IMG/VR virus record: IMGVR_UViG_3300020236_000094
Location: 1-36,810 of that record
Reading direction: 5' to 3' (one strand)
Length of the DNA stretch: 36,810 nt
From: a virus
Taxonomy: Duplodnaviria; Caudoviricetes
Shown in pieces: positions 1 through 5,644 of the stretch (position 1 is its first letter; every line of letters begins with the position of its first letter). A model generated the notes under the pieces. It had not been told where the DNA came from. It saw only the letters and a program-made list of their open reading frames with translations, and did no database searches. The position numbers were made by a program, and so were the translations under genes.

Positions 1-175
1 TCCCCGACGGTAAAGCCCTCCGGCAGCGTGGTCCCGCTGAGATCGAGCGAGCCGCCCACGTCCCCGACGGTAAAGCCCTCCGGCAGCGTGGCACCGCTGA
101 GATCGAGCCAGCCACCCACCTCTCCGACGGTAAAGCCCTTCGGCAGCGTGGCACCGCTGAGATCGAGCGAGCCGG
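1..175. repeat. 60-bp tandem repeat, about 3 copies visible, coding
   Basis: Lines 1-60, 61-120 and 121-175 are near-identical and encode the 20-aa repeats. Confidence 0.95.
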
Positions 176-521
176 GGAAGCTCATATCTGTAATATAATT
201 TAGGGCAAAAAGTGCATCCGCCCCTGTGTAGATAATACACATTGCACGAGCAGCAATTTTGTCTTTACCGACAGATTTCCGCTCAGCTCCCGTCTCGACA
301 AACTCAACACGAGATCCATTTTTCGCAAAACCATAGCCGCCAGGCCCCTGCATAAAAAACCCACTACCATCATAGGTTTTCTTATTTGTCCAGTTTGGGC
401 ATTCGTTCCACTCCCCGATAGGTTTATGGACAAAGCCATCATGGCCTACACCGTTATTGCTGGTGCGCACCCCCCACAACCCGGAGTGTTTGAGTTCGTC
501 GAGCTTTTTGGTGTCTATCAT
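1..521 (-). CDS. Repeat-containing phage protein, runs off the left edge; N-terminal globular domain followed by 20-aa LRR-like repeats (GGxLDLSGxTLPEGFTVGxV)
   Basis: Not in the ORF track. Manual translation from ATG 521 (RBS AAGGGAGAG upstream) is open to position 1: MIDTKKLDELKHSGLWGVRTSNNG...MSFPGSLDLSGATLPKGFTVGEVGGWLDLSGATLPEGFTVGDVGGSLDLSGTTLPEGFTVG. Confidence 0.85.
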   Translation of the reverse strand, partial: MIDTKKLDELKHSGLWGVRTSNNGVGHDGFVHKPIGEWNECPNWTNKKTYDGSGFFMQGPGGYGFAKNGSRVEFVETGAERKSVGKDKIAARAMCIIYTGADALFALNYITDMSFPGSLDLSGATLPKGFTVGEVGGWLDLSGATLPEGFTVGDVGGSLDLSGTTLPEGFTVG

Positions 522-540
522 TGTTCTCTCCCTTGTGAGC

Positions 541-640
541 GGGTCAGCAGCAGCTGTCTAATTAACGGGGTATCGGTGATCATTAACTAGTCCCGTCCTC
601 CGCCAGGTCTCTATGCTCCTGGAGCACTGCTGCTAACCCT
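541..640 (-). ncRNA. Structured 5' leader of the leftward transcript (multibranch stem)
   Basis: 13-bp outer stem 627-639/541-553 with a G-U pair on the minus strand; inner stems 603-607/618-622 and 558-567/581-590; begins at the predicted TSS (~640). Confidence 0.55.
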
Positions 641-646
641 GAACAG

Positions 647-693
647 AGTAAAGCATAGCAAGCCTTGACTGTCAAGCCTTGGCGTGCTAATCT
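647..693. promoter_or_regulatory. Back-to-back divergent sigma70 promoters with overlapping -35 boxes and operator-like repeats
   Basis: Rightward TTGACT(665-670)-17-TAATCT(688-693); leftward TTGACA(675-670)-17-TTTACT(652-647); both have a TGn extended -10; CAAGCCTTG at 659-667 and 673-681. Confidence 0.8.
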
Positions 694-720
694 TTCCATG
701 AAAGCTGAAAAGGATTAATT

Positions 721-876
721 ATGGCAACAAAAGATGAGCTGAAAATCTGGGAAAAGCGCCGCCAGAAAATCGTCAAGCTACGCGATGAAGGTAAGACATG
801 GGCCGAGATAGGGCGAAAATTCTGTATCAGCAGGCAGAGAGCGCAGCAGCTATATGACGCTGAGGTAGGCAAATGA
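721..876 (+). CDS. Small HTH DNA-binding protein (Cro-like / sigma region-4-like)
   Basis: Manual translation MATKDELKIWEKRRQKIVKLRDEGKTWAEIGRKFCISRQRAQQLYDAEVGK; RBS AAGGA; first gene after the promoter. Confidence 0.85.
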   Translation: MATKDELKIWEKRRQKIVKLRDEGKTWAEIGRKFCISRQRAQQLYDAEVGK

Positions 877-1175
877 ACCACTACGACGCTGTACTCGGCG
901 CGCCCGATGAGCATGAAAGGAAAATAGCCCTGGATAAGCTGGTAGCAGAACTGACTGAGCCACTGGGGTTTGAGGAGTGGTGGCAAGATGGTGGTGGTGG
1001 AATCTACGGGAAAGAAGACGGCATAAAAGCCTACCAGGCTGGCCGTAACAGACAGCGCGAAGCAGACGCACGAACAATACTGGAATGGATAACACGGCAA
1101 ACAGCAACCGAATACCATGTACATGCTCCTATTGTGCGGCGCATAGCCAAGGCTATTCGTAACCAAGGGGAATGA
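873..1175 (+). CDS. Hypothetical protein
   Basis: ATGA overlap with upstream gene; GAGG RBS. Confidence 0.7.
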   Translation: MNHYDAVLGAPDEHERKIALDKLVAELTEPLGFEEWWQDGGGGIYGKEDGIKAYQAGRNRQREADARTILEWITRQTATEYHVHAPIVRRIAKAIRNQGE

Positions 1176-1176
1176 A

Positions 1177-1284
1177 ATGGATAGAACTACAACTATTATA
1201 ATCGGCATATTGCTGGCCGCCATTGCTGCATTCTGGATTTCAATTGGTTACGTTGCTGCTCACTTTCTTGTTAAGTATTGGTGA
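1177..1284 (+). CDS. Small single-TM membrane protein (35 aa)
   Basis: MDRTTTIIIGILLAAIAAFWISIGYVAAHFLVKYW; tightly packed between neighbours. Confidence 0.6.
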   Translation: MDRTTTIIIGILLAAIAAFWISIGYVAAHFLVKYW

Positions 1285-1394
1285 TGCGCTGGCTACATAT
1301 ACAAGGATTCAGAATCGCCGTCTATTACGGGCTGAACCACAGTTTCAAGTGGCGAGCGGCTAATCAGTGGTGGCGGAAATCAGGAGAGAAATGA
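1284..1394 (+). CDS. Small hypothetical protein (36 aa)
   Basis: TGATG and ATGA overlaps at both ends; MRWLHIQGFRIAVYYG... Confidence 0.4.
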   Translation: MRWLHIQGFRIAVYYGLNHSFKWRAANQWWRKSGEK

Positions 1395-1579
1395 CTAACA
1401 CCTGCAAAGACTGTAAATACTTTCGGCCCATGAGAGATAATCCTGAATCATGGGGCGCCTGTGAATGGTACAAGCATAATAATGTAATAAAAATCCCCGT
1501 CTGGTCAAACATCATAAAGTCATACGGATCAATCAGTCCTAACTGTACGGACTGTGAAGTATTTGAAAGCAAGGTTTAA
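1391..1579 (+). CDS. Small Cys-rich protein (CxxC...C...CxxC)
   Basis: AGGAG RBS before ATG 1391; CKDCKYF, GAC and CTDC motifs. Confidence 0.7.
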   Translation: MTNTCKDCKYFRPMRDNPESWGACEWYKHNNVIKIPVWSNIIKSYGSISPNCTDCEVFESKV

Positions 1580-1599
1580 TTAATTGTGTAGGAGGAAGC

Positions 1600-1818
1600 A
1601 TGGAATTAAATTCTGAACATAAAGCAATAATTGATCACACGATCTATCGTGCAGCTAATAACCTGTACTGTGGTGGCGGAAAGCATATGGATGAGCTGTG
1701 TGACGCTGGTTACATGGAGTTCGCAGGAAAGACAGGGCTTTGTCCTGACCCTTACTATCGTGTCACAGCAGCAGGCAGAAAAGCCGTAAGAGTGGAGCCA
1801 ACTCCAGATGAAGACTAA
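1600..1818 (+). CDS. Hypothetical protein, possible winged-helix fold
   Basis: AGGAGG RBS; LCDAGYME...YRVTAAGRKA resembles a wHTH C-terminus. Confidence 0.7.
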   Translation: MELNSEHKAIIDHTIYRAANNLYCGGGKHMDELCDAGYMEFAGKTGLCPDPYYRVTAAGRKAVRVEPTPDED

Positions 1819-2008
1819 AGATTTAGAGCATTTAAAAATGCTGGCAGAGATTAACTTTATGGGCGCTTGTATGTGGGCTGGAGATAATGTCGAGGATCTG
1901 TCAGAATTCTTTGATACATGGGCCTCTCACTGCGGAGCGTCCAGAGCTACCTTCATCGGCCATACTGTGCGGATGCTTGTTGGAGCCAGCTCAAGATCAG
2001 AGTTATGA
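1808..2008 (+). CDS. Hypothetical protein
   Basis: ORF track; overlaps both neighbours; GGAG upstream. Confidence 0.6.
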   Translation: MKTKDLEHLKMLAEINFMGACMWAGDNVEDLSEFFDTWASHCGASRATFIGHTVRMLVGASSRSEL

Positions 2009-2508
2009 CTAAAACAATCAGAAACCAGCGCCGAGCTTTGAAAAAAGAAAACGATAAACCTCTAAACAAGCTACGGCTCGTCCATTATGGGGCGCCAAGG
2101 TATGAACCGAGTCGGTTTAAGCCTGTTTCAGATGTCCCTTTCAGGAATAAACCGATGGGCGGGCTGTGGACCTCTCCTGTTGGCTCATCATACGGATGGA
2201 AAGAATGGTGCAAGGCCGAAGCCTACTCAGAATGTTCTCAATCTTTCGAGCTTGATTTTTTCGGTTCTATTTTGACGATTGACAGCTTAGAAGACATGAC
2301 CTCCTTACCGTGGATCGAAGTAGACGGAATGCACTTTATAAGTTTTCAAGCCATGTGTGCTCTTGGGTTTGCTTACGACGCAATACATTTGACTATTCAG
2401 GGCGAGTCAACTACAAGCTTCTCGCTCCCTAAATCACTGTATGGCTGGGGCTGCGAAACCGTTTTTGTCATGAACCCGGAGTCTATATCCGCAAGGTTGG
2501 AGCCATGA
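2005..2508 (+). CDS. Conserved phage hypothetical protein (HYG...KPxGGLWTSP...WC...YDAIHLT...LYGWxCE), possible ADP-ribosyltransferase-like fold
   Basis: Start trimmed to ATG 2005 (ATGA overlap); fold is inferred from motif pattern only. Confidence 0.7.
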   Translation: MTKTIRNQRRALKKENDKPLNKLRLVHYGAPRYEPSRFKPVSDVPFRNKPMGGLWTSPVGSSYGWKEWCKAEAYSECSQSFELDFFGSILTIDSLEDMTSLPWIEVDGMHFISFQAMCALGFAYDAIHLTIQGESTTSFSLPKSLYGWGCETVFVMNPESISARLEP

Positions 2509-2689
2509 TATCGGTATATGCACTACGATTTAATGTTGAGCAAGTCAAGGCGACGTAGGCCATATCTGCGATGACCGCAGAAAGGGATAACCTGTACATG
2601 CCAAAAATGTACGCCAGACTCTAGTAACTGGCCTAAACATGAAAAGGTTGGAGCCAACTCCAGGTTGAACCCATGATAAAGGGGGTCAG

Positions 2690-2718
2690 TTGACATGGTA
2701 TCCGAAATATCTCATAGT
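2690..2718 (+). promoter_or_regulatory. sigma70-like promoter upstream of the structured RNA
   Basis: TTGACA(2690-2695)-17-CATAGT(2713-2718). Confidence 0.6.
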
Positions 2719-2720
2719 CC

Positions 2721-3170
2721 CAGACAGCGAAAAGGCCCAATCCTTTGCGGAATGAGCCTTCAGCCGGAAGCAATGCTTCCTGAATCGGTTAGCTCTAGCG
2801 GGCACCGAGGTGAACAAAGTATAGGGCACTCAAACCCTATAATCAACCTCAAAAATACAGTCCGCTATAAATTTAACGATTCCGCTGTCGGGAAAGCCAA
2901 CGGTAGAGCGTATCTATGTGGACAATACTATGCGTCAAGAGTTTGACTTGATCACACAATTTACTGGCAATGGTGCGGCGATTGAGCCAAGCCGAACATA
3001 AACACTCGTTAACAGCGGGGCGCACAAGGGATGTGCCGGGGTTTGGGCTGATACCTCCGAGTTGATTACGTGGTCAACCAATCAGTCGAGTGCAATAGCA
3101 TCGCCAGCAATACAGGCCACAGCCTATATGAGCCCCTACCGTGGAACGGCTCATTAGTCGTAGGTGTCTG
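2721..3170 (+). ncRNA. Large (~450 nt) highly structured non-coding RNA candidate
   Basis: More than 12 nested stems, complementary ends CAGACA/TGTCTG, G-U pairs favouring the + strand, own promoter, no convincing ORF. Confidence 0.65.
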
Positions 3171-3192
3171 ACATAAAAGTGAGGATAAGCAT

Positions 3193-3405
3193 ATGACAGG
3201 ACTATGGAACCCAAGCAAAGTAGTCAGATCAGATATTAATCGTGGAGACAGAAAGGAAAAAATAGGTCGATTAAAGAAGGCAAAGGAAATTATTGCCATT
3301 CCGTGCCCTGCTTGCGATAGCCCGGTTTATTACAATGCTGGGACTGGTAAGTATTTGACGCTATCAGGATCAGAGCATAAATGCGTTGGATTGCTGTATG
3401 AGTAA
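3193..3405 (+). CDS. Small Zn-finger protein (CPAC...HKC)
   Basis: GAGG RBS; CxxC and HxC. Confidence 0.7.
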   Translation: MTGLWNPSKVVRSDINRGDRKEKIGRLKKAKEIIAIPCPACDSPVYYNAGTGKYLTLSGSEHKCVGLLYE

Positions 3406-3456
3406 GTTATTCAAACCTTTGAATGCAGTCTGTAAAAAATGTGAGGGAAGGATAAA

Positions 3457-3879
3457 ATGACTAAATTCCCTTTCACAGACGACCGTTGCCGAAAACTCTA
3501 CGAATTGGCCCGCCCCGTTGGTGATTATCACGCCTTCGCATGGAGGGAATCCCCGAATACTCTGCAAAATCATTGGGGAAAGGCAACAAAGGGAAAGTCT
3601 GAATCTGAAAAAGACGAATTATTAAGGCTCTGTCTGGCTGCTGGTGTTTTGCAGTCCAAGTACCGAATTGACGATGAACGACGCGGGAACCGGCTGAACA
3701 GACCGAAGGGGATAGCGCCCTGGTTTGCTGCTGGCGATTATTACAAAGAGCTTATCGGGCCAAAGGATGAAAAGGAAAGGACAATCCGTAACACCTGTAC
3801 GTTTAACGGCTGCGATGAAGACGTACATGGTCCACGGTTCGACTTATGCAGCGACCACCTTGCGAGGACGTATAGATGA
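3457..3879 (+). CDS. Putative replication-initiator C-terminal-like domain with C-terminal Zn finger
   Basis: Helical domain ending RPKGIAPWFAAGDYYKE resembles the PxTWLNxxxY motif of phage initiator C-termini; CTFNGC...CSDH; position in the early-right operon. Confidence 0.5.
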   Translation: MTKFPFTDDRCRKLYELARPVGDYHAFAWRESPNTLQNHWGKATKGKSESEKDELLRLCLAAGVLQSKYRIDDERRGNRLNRPKGIAPWFAAGDYYKELIGPKDEKERTIRNTCTFNGCDEDVHGPRFDLCSDHLARTYR

Positions 3880-4097
3880 AGGCATACCCGTACAAAACCA
3901 AAGATGGATATTGTTCAATTTTGGAAGCTGTTGATAAAGAAGATGCTTGCAATCATTTGCCAGTAGGTACTGTATTCTGTGAGATTCAGATTGAGCCATT
4001 AGATTTAATGACAAAATATGGTAACGATATAGAAAGGCATGTTGAAGGTTATCTTACTAGATATAATGAAATCATAACAGTTGGGACTAATGGATAA
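3876..4097 (+). CDS. Hypothetical protein
   Basis: ATGA overlap; GAGG RBS. Confidence 0.65.
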   Translation: MKAYPYKTKDGYCSILEAVDKEDACNHLPVGTVFCEIQIEPLDLMTKYGNDIERHVEGYLTRYNEIITVGTNG

Positions 4098-4185
4098 GCC
4101 CATCAAAATACCCTGCCCCCGCTGTAATAAGGCGATGGTTATTCTGGGCAGGCGGTGTAAATTTTGTTTGTGGAGGGATGAATGA
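4090..4185 (+). CDS. 31-aa Zn-ribbon protein
   Basis: MDKPIKIPCPRCNKAMVILGRRCKFCLWRDE; overlaps both neighbours. Confidence 0.55.
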   Translation: MDKPIKIPCPRCNKAMVILGRRCKFCLWRDE

Positions 4186-4340
4186 TTTGCGTAGAAGGAA
4201 AGATAATCATCGGAGAATACGTCATTGAGGAAAAGGATGACGATACTGTCTGGATTTCCCAGCTGGACGGTGAAGGTGGAGCCTTTGATGCGAAGGCACT
4301 TGAGTCAGTTATTGAACGGTTTTACTTGGATCATTTCTGA
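4182..4340 (+). CDS. Small acidic hypothetical protein (52 aa)
   Basis: GGAGG RBS; ATGA overlap; MICVEGKIIIGEYVIEEKDDDTVWISQLDGEGGAF... Confidence 0.7.
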   Translation: MICVEGKIIIGEYVIEEKDDDTVWISQLDGEGGAFDAKALESVIERFYLDHF

Positions 4341-4645
4341 TGAGCCAGCCCCGGCGCGCAAAGAAGATTGATAAATCCCAGATAGGGATAGTGGGGACGC
4401 TACGAGGTTATCCAGGGATCTCTGTAAAGCTGGACGTAGACGATATTTTGGTAGGCTATAACATGCAGAATTATCTTTTCGAGATAAAGAACCCTGATGC
4501 AATAAGCAAAAAAACGGGGTTATTACTCGAATCAAAAAAGACGAAATCGCAGAAGCGGCTGGACAGGACATGGACCGGACATCGAGGCTATGCAACCTGC
4601 GTTAAAGATATTTTGCAGGCTATTGGGTATCGGCGCAAAACTTGA
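4340..4645 (+). CDS. PD-(D/E)xK nuclease (VRR-NUC / Holliday-junction-resolvase-like)
   Basis: RAKKIDxSQxxIVxxLR...DILVGY...LFEIK...SQ pattern. Confidence 0.75.
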   Translation: MSQPRRAKKIDKSQIGIVGTLRGYPGISVKLDVDDILVGYNMQNYLFEIKNPDAISKKTGLLLESKKTKSQKRLDRTWTGHRGYATCVKDILQAIGYRRKT

Positions 4646-4691
4646 GGTAATTGTTATGAAAAACTTAAACAAAACCGCGTTGCTTTTGGCT

Positions 4692-4999
4692 GGTCAGTTT
4701 GACCGCCTTGTTATATTTTTTATTAATTTAGGTGAGCGATATGGAAGAAAGAACCGGAACAATTAAAAGCTATATTGAAGCGCCAAGGTGGGCTGCATTT
4801 CCTGAGTTTCTAAGGAACAGGTGTTTTGTTCTTGGGCTTGATTTAGAGCTTGATATAGATAAAGGATGGATTAGAGAAACGGTGAGATTTAAAATTGAAG
4901 GGAAAGAGTCGGTATTAAGACAATTTATTAGAGAGCTTGATGCAAGCATGAAAGATTACAACGAAATATAACAGTGATATATACAGAAAGCCGTGTATC
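4692..4999 (-). mobile_element. Integron-like unit 1: attI-like site (4999-4964), cassette with inverted gene, truncated attC left arm (4716-4692)
   Basis: Cores GTTATATTT(4710-4718)/AAATATAAC(4964-4972) are perfectly complementary; minus strand reads ATATAAC AAGGC GGTCAAAC TGACC. Confidence 0.65.
4741..4971 (+). CDS. Cassette-borne hypothetical protein
   Basis: AGGTGAG RBS; stop TAA lies inside the ATATAAC core. Confidence 0.75.
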   Translation: MEERTGTIKSYIEAPRWAAFPEFLRNRCFVLGLDLELDIDKGWIRETVRFKIEGKESVLRQFIRELDASMKDYNEI

Positions 5000-5153
5000 A
5001 ACCTACTGAGGGAGTCTCCATCTGATAGATGGGTGAAGGTTCGTACCGCAACGGCATGCTCTCGCACCCGGAAATCAGCATAACGATAACAGCCACGACG
5101 ACGGCGAAGACGAAGGGCAGAAGTCGGGCGGCAAGTTCAGTCGGGGGCAACAT
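4998..5153 (-). CDS. Small lipoprotein (51 aa) at the end of the lysis cassette
   Basis: Manual translation MLPPTELAARLLPFVFAVVVAVIVMLISG-CESMPLRYEPSPIYQMETPSVG; lipobox ISGC. Confidence 0.55.
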   Translation of the reverse strand: MLPPTELAARLLPFVFAVVVAVIVMLISGCESMPLRYEPSPIYQMETPSVG

Positions 5154-5388
5154 CGCCTAAAGATTTCCTGAACGCTTCTTTATCGTAATTACACGATGCC
5201 AGCGCCTTCACAGTCTGCCTGCACCAACCCACTAACTCCCCACTGTTTGCCGGCATCCAGCCAGGCGGCAGCGTCGGAGCCAGTAGTTGCTCAGGGTACG
5301 TTCTTTCGATCTTTACCGGCGTTTGGGAACAGCTGATCAAAAACACACTGAGGCAAAGGGCGGTCAGCCCACATTTTACAGTCTTCAT
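5137..5388 (-). CDS. rz1: Outer-membrane spanin (Rz1-like lipoprotein)
   Basis: Lipobox LISC, Pro-rich segment, ALASCNYDK; overlaps the i-spanin 3' end in another frame. Confidence 0.85.
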   Translation of the reverse strand: MKTVKCGLTALCLSVFLISCSQTPVKIERTYPEQLLAPTLPPGWMPANSGELVGWCRQTVKALASCNYDKEAFRKSLGDVAPD

Positions 5389-5644
5389 CGGATTTCAGCC
5401 TCGCTTGCCATCGTTGCTGCCATTGCTGTGCGGCCTGTTGCGCGGCTACACGCTCCCGTTCACGCTGTGCCAATATCCCGGCCTGTCGCTTGATCTCAGC
5501 TGTCTGGTCAGCCAGAGCAAGCCGGTAGCTGTCCCGCTCTGACTTTGCCTGTGCCTCGCCCTGCCATGCGCTCTTGAGCAGGTATCCGGTGCTGGTCAGC
5601 AAGAGGGCCAGTATACCGATGGCAGCGAGCAGGTAGCGGGTCAT
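5291..5644 (-). CDS. rz: Inner-membrane spanin (Rz-like)
   Basis: N-terminal TM, coiled coil, C-terminal CKMWADRPLPQCV. Confidence 0.85.
   Translation of the reverse strand: MTRYLLAAIGILALLLTSTGYLLKSAWQGEAQAKSERDSYRLALADQTAEIKRQAGILAQRERERVAAQQAAQQWQQRWQARLKSDEDCKMWADRPLPQCVFDQLFPNAGKDRKNVP

Follow-up and report, generated by a model that had tools for sequence, protein, structure and literature searches.

The window, as we call the whole 36,810-nt stretch of DNA analysed here, is a linear virus record estimated to be 58% complete, and it belongs to a tailed phage with a Gram-negative host. Its terminase, capsid, endolysin and spanin genes all lie on the minus strand, and the RNA element described below sits within a plus-strand operon that begins at 721 with a small HTH gene and runs towards the lysis genes, meeting them near 5100 (Table 1). 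The one run listed for the record is labelled a hydrothermal vent metagenome, and a terminase-based scan of genome contigs for the host returned three distant loci and no host. GC skew in the window tracks gene direction and does not mark an origin here. Three boundaries between genes of the early operon (1790, 1978 and 2646) carry an 18-nt motif with the core GGAGCCAACTCCAG; the hairpin region directly 5' of the element's promoter (2550-2669) folds with a z-score of -3.9 on the plus strand; and positions 1-180 consist of three tandem copies of 60 nt that, read by eye on the minus strand, encode a leucine-rich-type repeat protein open at the contig end. A joint in run X1 connects 1565 to 2643, skipping 1077 nt at a depth of 14, which suggests a variant without that gene block.

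Table 1. Positions in the window of the RNA element, its predicted antisense partner and the two genes that follow
Feature	Position	Strand	Basis
Sigma70-type promoter of the long sense RNA, TTGACA-17-CATAGT	2690..2718	+	Promoter scan, 10/12
Predicted long sense RNA (RNA II-like), ~450 nt	2725..3170	+	Folding and promoter; 5' end inferred from the promoter
Predicted antisense RNA, ~85 nt, three stem-loops	2728..2811	-	Fold
Hairpin and U run, predicted terminator of the antisense RNA	2729..2760	-	Fold; missing from the terminator-scan output for the window
Conserved core domain: outer helix GAATCG/CGATTC, middle helix, ACC bulge, variable inner arm, then CCGC	2782..2885	+	Folds, model, alignment
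Early hairpin TCGGT/ACCGA	2785..2808	+	Invariant in window and L013; predicted by prefix folds
Convergent promoter TTGATT-17-TATACT	2818..2846	-	Promoter scan, 9/12
Hairpin with GCGTA loop	2903..2917	+	Stem pairs changed relative to L013: two on both sides, one G-C/G-U
3' half, putative structure	2920..3170	+	Motifs GGTGCGG, ATAAACAC and CGGGGTTT also in L013
70-aa basic protein, CxxC...HxC motif	3193..3405	+	Directly 3' of the RNA here and in L013, with 40% identity
140-aa free-standing C-terminal-type domain of phage replication initiators, with C-terminal cysteine cluster	3457..3879	+	Profile comparison

The element had been proposed, from inspection of the sequence, to be a ~450-nt non-coding RNA with dense structure along its whole length (the original prediction). 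Its promoter is located where it was described and is the best-scoring of seven promoter-like sites in 1-5500, where 7.6 would be expected by chance, and all 17 complementary pairs listed with it are present at their positions. On the plus strand, the whole element folds with a z-score of -1.85 (3/100 shuffles were equally good); this value combines a strongly structured 5' half (2720-2912, -4.97) with a 3' half (2913-3172) at +0.03, to which no relative could be aligned, such that dense structure was upheld for the former and not for the latter. In a nested ensemble of 2720-3215, pair probabilities were close to one for the 5' helices GGAAGC (1.00), TATAGGG (0.99), TAGCGGG (0.98) and GAGGT (0.95), as well as for GAATCG/CGATTC (0.94), a helix absent from the original prediction. 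The better 3' helices reached 0.74 (ATGAGCC), 0.63 (CTGGC) and 0.58 (GCACA), and the poor ones 0.21 (TCAAG), 0.08 (GGCTGAT), 0.02 (GGTGC) and 0.00 (CACTCG); two helices that had been entered one base off are left out of these values. For the proposed pairing of the ends (CAGACA/TGTCTG), the complementary words exist but pair with probability 0.00, and the same holds for the proposed pseudoknots, although a nested model cannot score these. The GCTCTA/TAGAGC helix had an ensemble probability of 0.00, and its register is not kept in L013, a relative of the element (see below), where the TAGA strand instead forms part of the conserved GCGTA-loop hairpin.

The element is an ORF-free-type unit of ~500 bp in which iteron-like repeats were not found, and beyond 2946 it contains no long open frame on the plus strand. 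Relatives of its 83-aa ORF (2695-2946) were not found: neither PHROG nor Pfam gave a match, nor did tblastn against the record of L013, and the conserved GGGCACCGA falls in different reading frames in the window and L013 (by eye); thus, protein-level conservation does not speak against an RNA. ARAGORN found neither tRNA nor tmRNA in the window, in agreement with what had been noted. Rfam returned nothing at gathering score and a single chance match at E 9.9; GOLLD, ROOL and the group I and II introns were unmatched, and nothing favoured a ribozyme or an intron.

The two genes that follow the element differ in how much can be said of them. For the 70-aa protein, PHROG, Pfam and atlas searches found no family. 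The 140-aa protein lacks the N-terminal origin-binding HTH of an initiator. A search of 1.84 billion representatives gave 30 relatives of it, 28 of which were aligned to build profile A1 (the other two gave short repeated matches). On its own the window protein has no PHROG or Pfam match and atlas searches found no family, but eight of the 28 family members match PHROG 9474 and five match PHROG 270, both named replication initiation protein, and the family profile matches the C-terminal domain of a full-length prophage initiator with a probability of 97% (E 1e-10). Profile A1 matched only 2/401 genomes. In all three genome matches the domain is fused to a longer N-terminal part, giving a protein of 235-265 aa, and the next gene looks by eye as if it encodes a DnaB helicase or a DnaC-type loader. 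In fold searches, PDB had nothing matching at E 0.001, the best VIA score (Z 4.7) was uninformative, and among weak viral fold matches (best E 0.015) those with names were mostly replisome organisers or initiators. Helicase recruitment by lambda O-type proteins provides an analogy for the role of the C-terminal domain of an initiator.

To place the element, we compared what occupies the position upstream of this domain in related loci. Protein scans with the 3457-3879 product returned L013 and ten metagenome loci, and the slot could be judged at six distinct loci, with L014, L021 and L172 excluded for having too little upstream DNA and with L017-L019, which repeat the L013 element, counted together with it as one. 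L013, on a 19.5-kb record estimated to be 52% complete, has a non-coding gap in the slot followed by the same small gene as in the window, and L020 has a gene for an HTH_36 protein (E 3.4e-10). The downstream genes of L013 and its sister phage L020 have 91% identity across 387 nt, counted from the start codon, and upstream of it there is no match. Because homology ends at the start codon, the RNA unit and the initiator gene are alternative occupants of one slot, and since the RNA element lies where a close relative has its initiator gene, the phage may begin DNA copying with RNA, in the manner of ColE1-type plasmids. Together, the initiator-family gene downstream and the HTH_36 initiator in L020 bear out the replication-gene position assigned to the element. 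The early region appears inverted between the window and the record of L013 (judged against L169), the RNA operon being opposite to the late genes in the window (721-5000) and in the same direction in the record of L013.

Other loci have different contents. L015 and L016 have other genes in the slot, and L016 has a partial relative of the L013 element 2.7 kb upstream of its initiator-domain gene (E 6e-21); the gene after this RNA is an HTH gene, such that the RNA is kept although the next gene differs. Both loci also carry a long G/A-rich low-complexity repeat tract of GGCGAGGC-like units (L016:1935-2510 and L015:75-295) behind two genes without a Pfam match. Non-coding gaps of 580-650 nt precede relatives of the initiator-domain gene in L022 (3150-3803) and L023 (1895-2476, of which 1895-2190 has a z-score of -3.6); neither of our RNA models matches them, and they may represent other RNA families in the same slot. 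In the annotated phage closest by capsid, MW202713.1, an apparent gap was considered as an RNA and rejected, as it holds an unannotated 264-aa ORF after the cro gene (L168:7386-8180), which has no Pfam match and which we take to be initiator-like from its position and motif. An initiator N-terminal domain was not found in the 36.8 kb of the window or the 19.5 kb of the L013 record, both partial, with PF13730 or six initiator queries; given the estimated completeness of 58%, the part of the genome outside the window may encode an initiator.

Searches for further copies added little. The window element had no DNA match among annotated phages and plasmids, and the L013 element gave short chance matches only. 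In viral contigs, a 17-mer scan produced eight matches, all chance; a 16-mer, L013 and 17 chance matches; a three-part pattern, the L013 contig and five chance matches in coding DNA; a looser pattern, 118 loci from 49 of the 64 collection parts, none of them new; and protein scans, nothing or L013 only. A motif scan of these contigs returned L172, with little upstream DNA, and L173. A model built from L013 and L016 (R2) matched none of 151 genomes.

A putative convergent promoter and antisense terminator inside the element were overlooked in the original prediction. L013 has a minus-strand promoter-like site within its core (TTGACA-17-GATAAT, 11/12), and the -35 box at that position is kept in L016 (TTGACT) and at a loose end in run X1 (TTGACA); the antisense promoter of the window is shifted relative to it. 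Judged by sequence, the promoter and terminator signals are strong in L013 and weaker in the window. The equivalent terminator in L013 does appear in the list of the terminator scan (3439-3422), 55 nt past the antisense promoter, and the antisense RNA predicted there is ~70 nt long with two stem-loops. The predicted antisense RNAs fold with z-scores of -2.73 in the window and -4.20 in L013, compared with -1.29 and -2.63 for the plus strand of the same stretch. In both, the first stem-loop is the mirror of TCGGT/ACCGA, and in folds of successive sense prefixes from both elements the TCGGT/ACCGA hairpin is predicted to form first and to be displaced by the long core domain once the 3' strand of the latter is present. 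This predicted switch from hairpin to domain is the pattern expected for an antisense RNA that would act within a time window of transcription.

Relatives of the element were reached via the downstream gene and comprise L013, which is whole, and L016, which is partial, giving three distinct elements in all, one of them incomplete. The window and L013 share, in common order, TGAATCGGTT, GGGCACCGA, CAG.CC, CGATTCCGC and the GCGTA hairpin, with a promoter-like site before the element and the same two genes after it. The promoter-like site of L013, TTGACC-17-TACCTT, lies in the same place and scores 8/12 by eye, below the threshold of the scan; it derives from the final copy of a boundary repeat, TTGACC.ACACCAATGA, of which we count three copies by eye. 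The window and L013 were also compared in eight helices picked by hand, where 35 of 36 pairs hold in both, four of them through double-sided changes. The one-sided changes that keep a pair are all G-C/G-U on the plus strand; one one-sided change in the comparison stems from an anchor that is one base off. By its own statistics this homology is weak: alignment of the whole gap gave a z-score of 1.4 (41/500 shuffles reach the score), the best site of the L013 model in the window (2779-2908) scored 10.3 bits (E 1.2) where unrelated DNA reaches 9.9 bits, and the best 30-nt match was equalled in 8/2000 shuffles and 3/539 real slices. We accept homology of the 5' core because of synteny and the order of the motifs.

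A large RNA on the minus strand was also considered, as the whole element folds there with a z-score of -4.91. It was rejected because L013 has no strand bias (-3.5 and -3.3) and because the one-sided changes that keep a pair are of the G-C/G-U type on the plus strand; some of the minus-strand signal can be put down to the antisense cassette.

In six helices compared between L013 and L016, which include a long-range helix and a loop pseudoknot, 27/27 pairs are kept with seven double-sided changes. This result is reached in 4/500 shuffles, and slid controls are 30-46% paired, and a column-shuffle test yielded 2.85 +- 1.14 double-sided changes (1/400 shuffles reached seven), although these tests lean towards the helices, which were picked from the same two sequences in which they were counted. 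The covarying 3' regions nevertheless have weak folding z-scores (-0.1 for L016:14-245 and -0.9 for L013:3570-3750), and a z-score of zero in the 3' half of the window is therefore compatible with structure there. These results bear on the view that only the promoter and a small antisense RNA cassette are real, with the rest of the gap being the remnant of a lost gene and its 3' helices due to chance. The z-score of the 3' half would fit this view, as would the failure of R2 to match it and the course of depth in run X1, which is 68-98 over 2601-3000 compared with ~18 in most neighbouring bins and in which the extra depth from related contigs stops near 2926-3000. Loose ends in that run lie at 2687, 2882 and 2926, and the promoter and 5' half occur on other contigs of the run next to different flanks, one of these contigs matching from 2687 with a different upstream flank; X1 is a single run that is possibly the source sample, and so it does not count as independent support. 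A remnant would leave unexplained why 3' halves of weak z-score covary in the relatives, and neither a long plus-strand frame beyond 2946 nor a tblastn trace of initiator sequence was found in the gap. We consider this the least probable of the explanations weighed here.

The relatives also differ in size, at ~340 nt compared with 450 nt, and have the 5' core alone in common with the window. This difference argues against a trans-acting, stand-alone phage RNA, an ornate RNA or protein scaffold like GOLLD or ROOL that would be processed from the early transcript and to which the small basic protein with its cysteine cluster might bind. The element's own promoter, the possible pairing of its ends and the multi-helix, pseudoknotted fold of the relatives would suit such an RNA, as would the tight linkage to the 70-aa gene in two of three loci, but it has no match in Rfam, the window contains no tRNA, and such an RNA would account neither for the antisense cassette nor for the exchange with an initiator gene; we regard it as unlikely. 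Taken together, folding of the 5' half, the syntenic relative and covariation among the relatives lead us to consider the element real, with the support lying in its 5' half: a structured, non-coding RNA of no Rfam family that stands in place of an initiator gene and has a predicted antisense partner.

What is predicted here resembles the replication regions of certain plasmids. As described in PMC3035462, MRB replicons are ~488 bp long without an ORF, with an RNA I of 68 nt that has two stem-loops and a terminator between A and T runs and an RNA II of at least 465 nt, and that paper names just two plasmid families, ColE1 and MRB, in which replication is started by RNA without a Rep protein. 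Like MRB (pB1067 type), the element is an ORF-free unit of ~500 bp with a predicted antisense RNA near 70 nt that would have its own promoter and terminator, opposite a predicted long RNA of comparable length, and iterons were not found; some MRB members likewise have the antisense core alone in common (PMC3035462). Unlike the MRB replicons, which belong to Vibrionaceae plasmids and have no partner protein, it is found in a tailed phage together with a free initiator C-terminal domain (PMC3035462). A search of the plasmid collection, which lacks pB1067 itself, found no DNA match. The predicted features that the element shares with the ColE1 RNA II and RNA I (PMC5043065) are a long non-coding RNA whose 5' end is overlapped by a convergent antisense RNA, folds that alternate while the RNA is being transcribed and, in the window, three stem-loops in the antisense RNA, but there is no sequence or Rfam match, and the ColE1 RNAs are ~550 nt (RNA II) and ~110 nt (RNA I) long. 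The element would thus work like ColE1 and MRB in layout, by analogy; membership by sequence failed.

Two further comparisons are informative. The ARRPOF, GEBRO and PAGEV plasmid motifs and ROOL and GOLLD are present in Rfam, and the element has no match in Rfam 15 at E up to 10 save the one by chance. It is like them in being a mid-length structured RNA at a replication region, or a large phage RNA (PMC5737381); such an element in a phage is not described in the accessible papers, and the supplements of PMC5737381 might list the motif. In the IncI repZ leader and its antisense RNA Inc, a short antisense RNA likewise faces a long pseudoknot-forming leader before replication genes, but there (PMC8383071) the leader is followed by a complete Rep initiator and has its pseudoknot at the ribosome-binding site, whereas here a C-terminal-type domain follows without an origin-binding initiator and the covarying pseudoknot is internal.

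Based on the match in size and layout with MRB and ColE1 and on the initiator swap, we rate as most likely, with a probability of roughly 0.45, that the element is a ColE1/MRB-like RNA replicon in place of the origin-opening half of an initiator; a role as replication primer, which the original prediction had listed among others, is the best-supported function, by inference. Both RNAs would be made. The ~450-nt sense RNA would open the phage origin through an R-loop and a primer, its mature form remaining hybridised to its own template, and host RNase H and Pol I would start synthesis. The 70-85-nt antisense RNA would catch the 5' end of the sense RNA during transcription, while the early hairpin is exposed, which would prevent the mature fold and block priming. 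The free-standing initiator C-terminal domain would bring the host helicase to the opened strand, with either an RNA or an HTH protein as its partner. A replicon is supported by the exchange between the RNA unit and an HTH_36 initiator gene, whose breakpoint is the start codon of the shared downstream gene. Further support comes from the initiator-like ORF of MW202713.1, the link of the downstream family to initiators, the failure to find an initiator N-terminal domain in the window or the record of L013 or iteron-like repeats in the gap, the covariation among the relatives and the persistence of the RNA in L016 before a different gene. More tentatively, we propose that lambda-like phages may be able to swap an origin-binding initiator for a new family of antisense-controlled primer RNA, with the free-standing C-terminal domain as helicase adaptor. 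Such a hybrid RNA-protein initiator was not found in the literature searched.

The placement of the element next to a gene argues against a replicon. In the window, L013 and L016 alike, it ends ~10 nt before a ribosome-binding site, as a leader would, and the terminator scan of the window found no terminator 3' of it. Also weighing against a replicon are the score (9/12) and shifted place of the window's antisense promoter, the weak statistics of its homology with L013, a 3' half that neither matches R2 nor folds better than chance, the 2.7 kb between the RNA and the initiator-domain gene in L016, the lack of a family match for the window's own 140-aa protein and the incompleteness of the record. 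The main rival explanation is an antisense-controlled leader, in which the sense RNA would serve as 5' leader to both the small gene and the initiator-domain gene, whose translation or transcription the antisense RNA would shut off. Phage leaders of the C4/CI type are a possible analogue. Where the slot is filled by a protein initiator, its gene can likewise have a structured leader: that of L020 (50-192, z-score -4.5) has no Rfam match, and it and the leader in L173 (2560-2705) each show a long hairpin, a bulge complementary to a word just upstream and a T run at the end, reminiscent of C4/CI-type RNAs. When the antisense target is blocked in simulated folds of L013, the freed strand is predicted to pair with the ribosome-binding site (mean unpaired 0.51 to 0.28), but the window is unchanged in the same simulation (0.27 to 0.27). 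The mechanism itself is known for repZ (PMC8383071). A leader would not explain the loss of the initiator gene from the slot or why a covarying, pseudoknotted 3' half precedes different genes, and conservation of a leader peptide is absent. We consider a leader possible, if somewhat doubtful.

If the leader explanation is true, the element would still represent an uncatalogued family of antisense-regulated RNAs. If instead the element is an RNA replicon, it would be a third RNA pair, unrelated to those of ColE1 and MRB, residing in a tailed phage and trading places with an HTH initiator gene across a clean breakpoint. Phage replication modules could then be either RNA or protein, which would help to account for phages without an annotated initiator.
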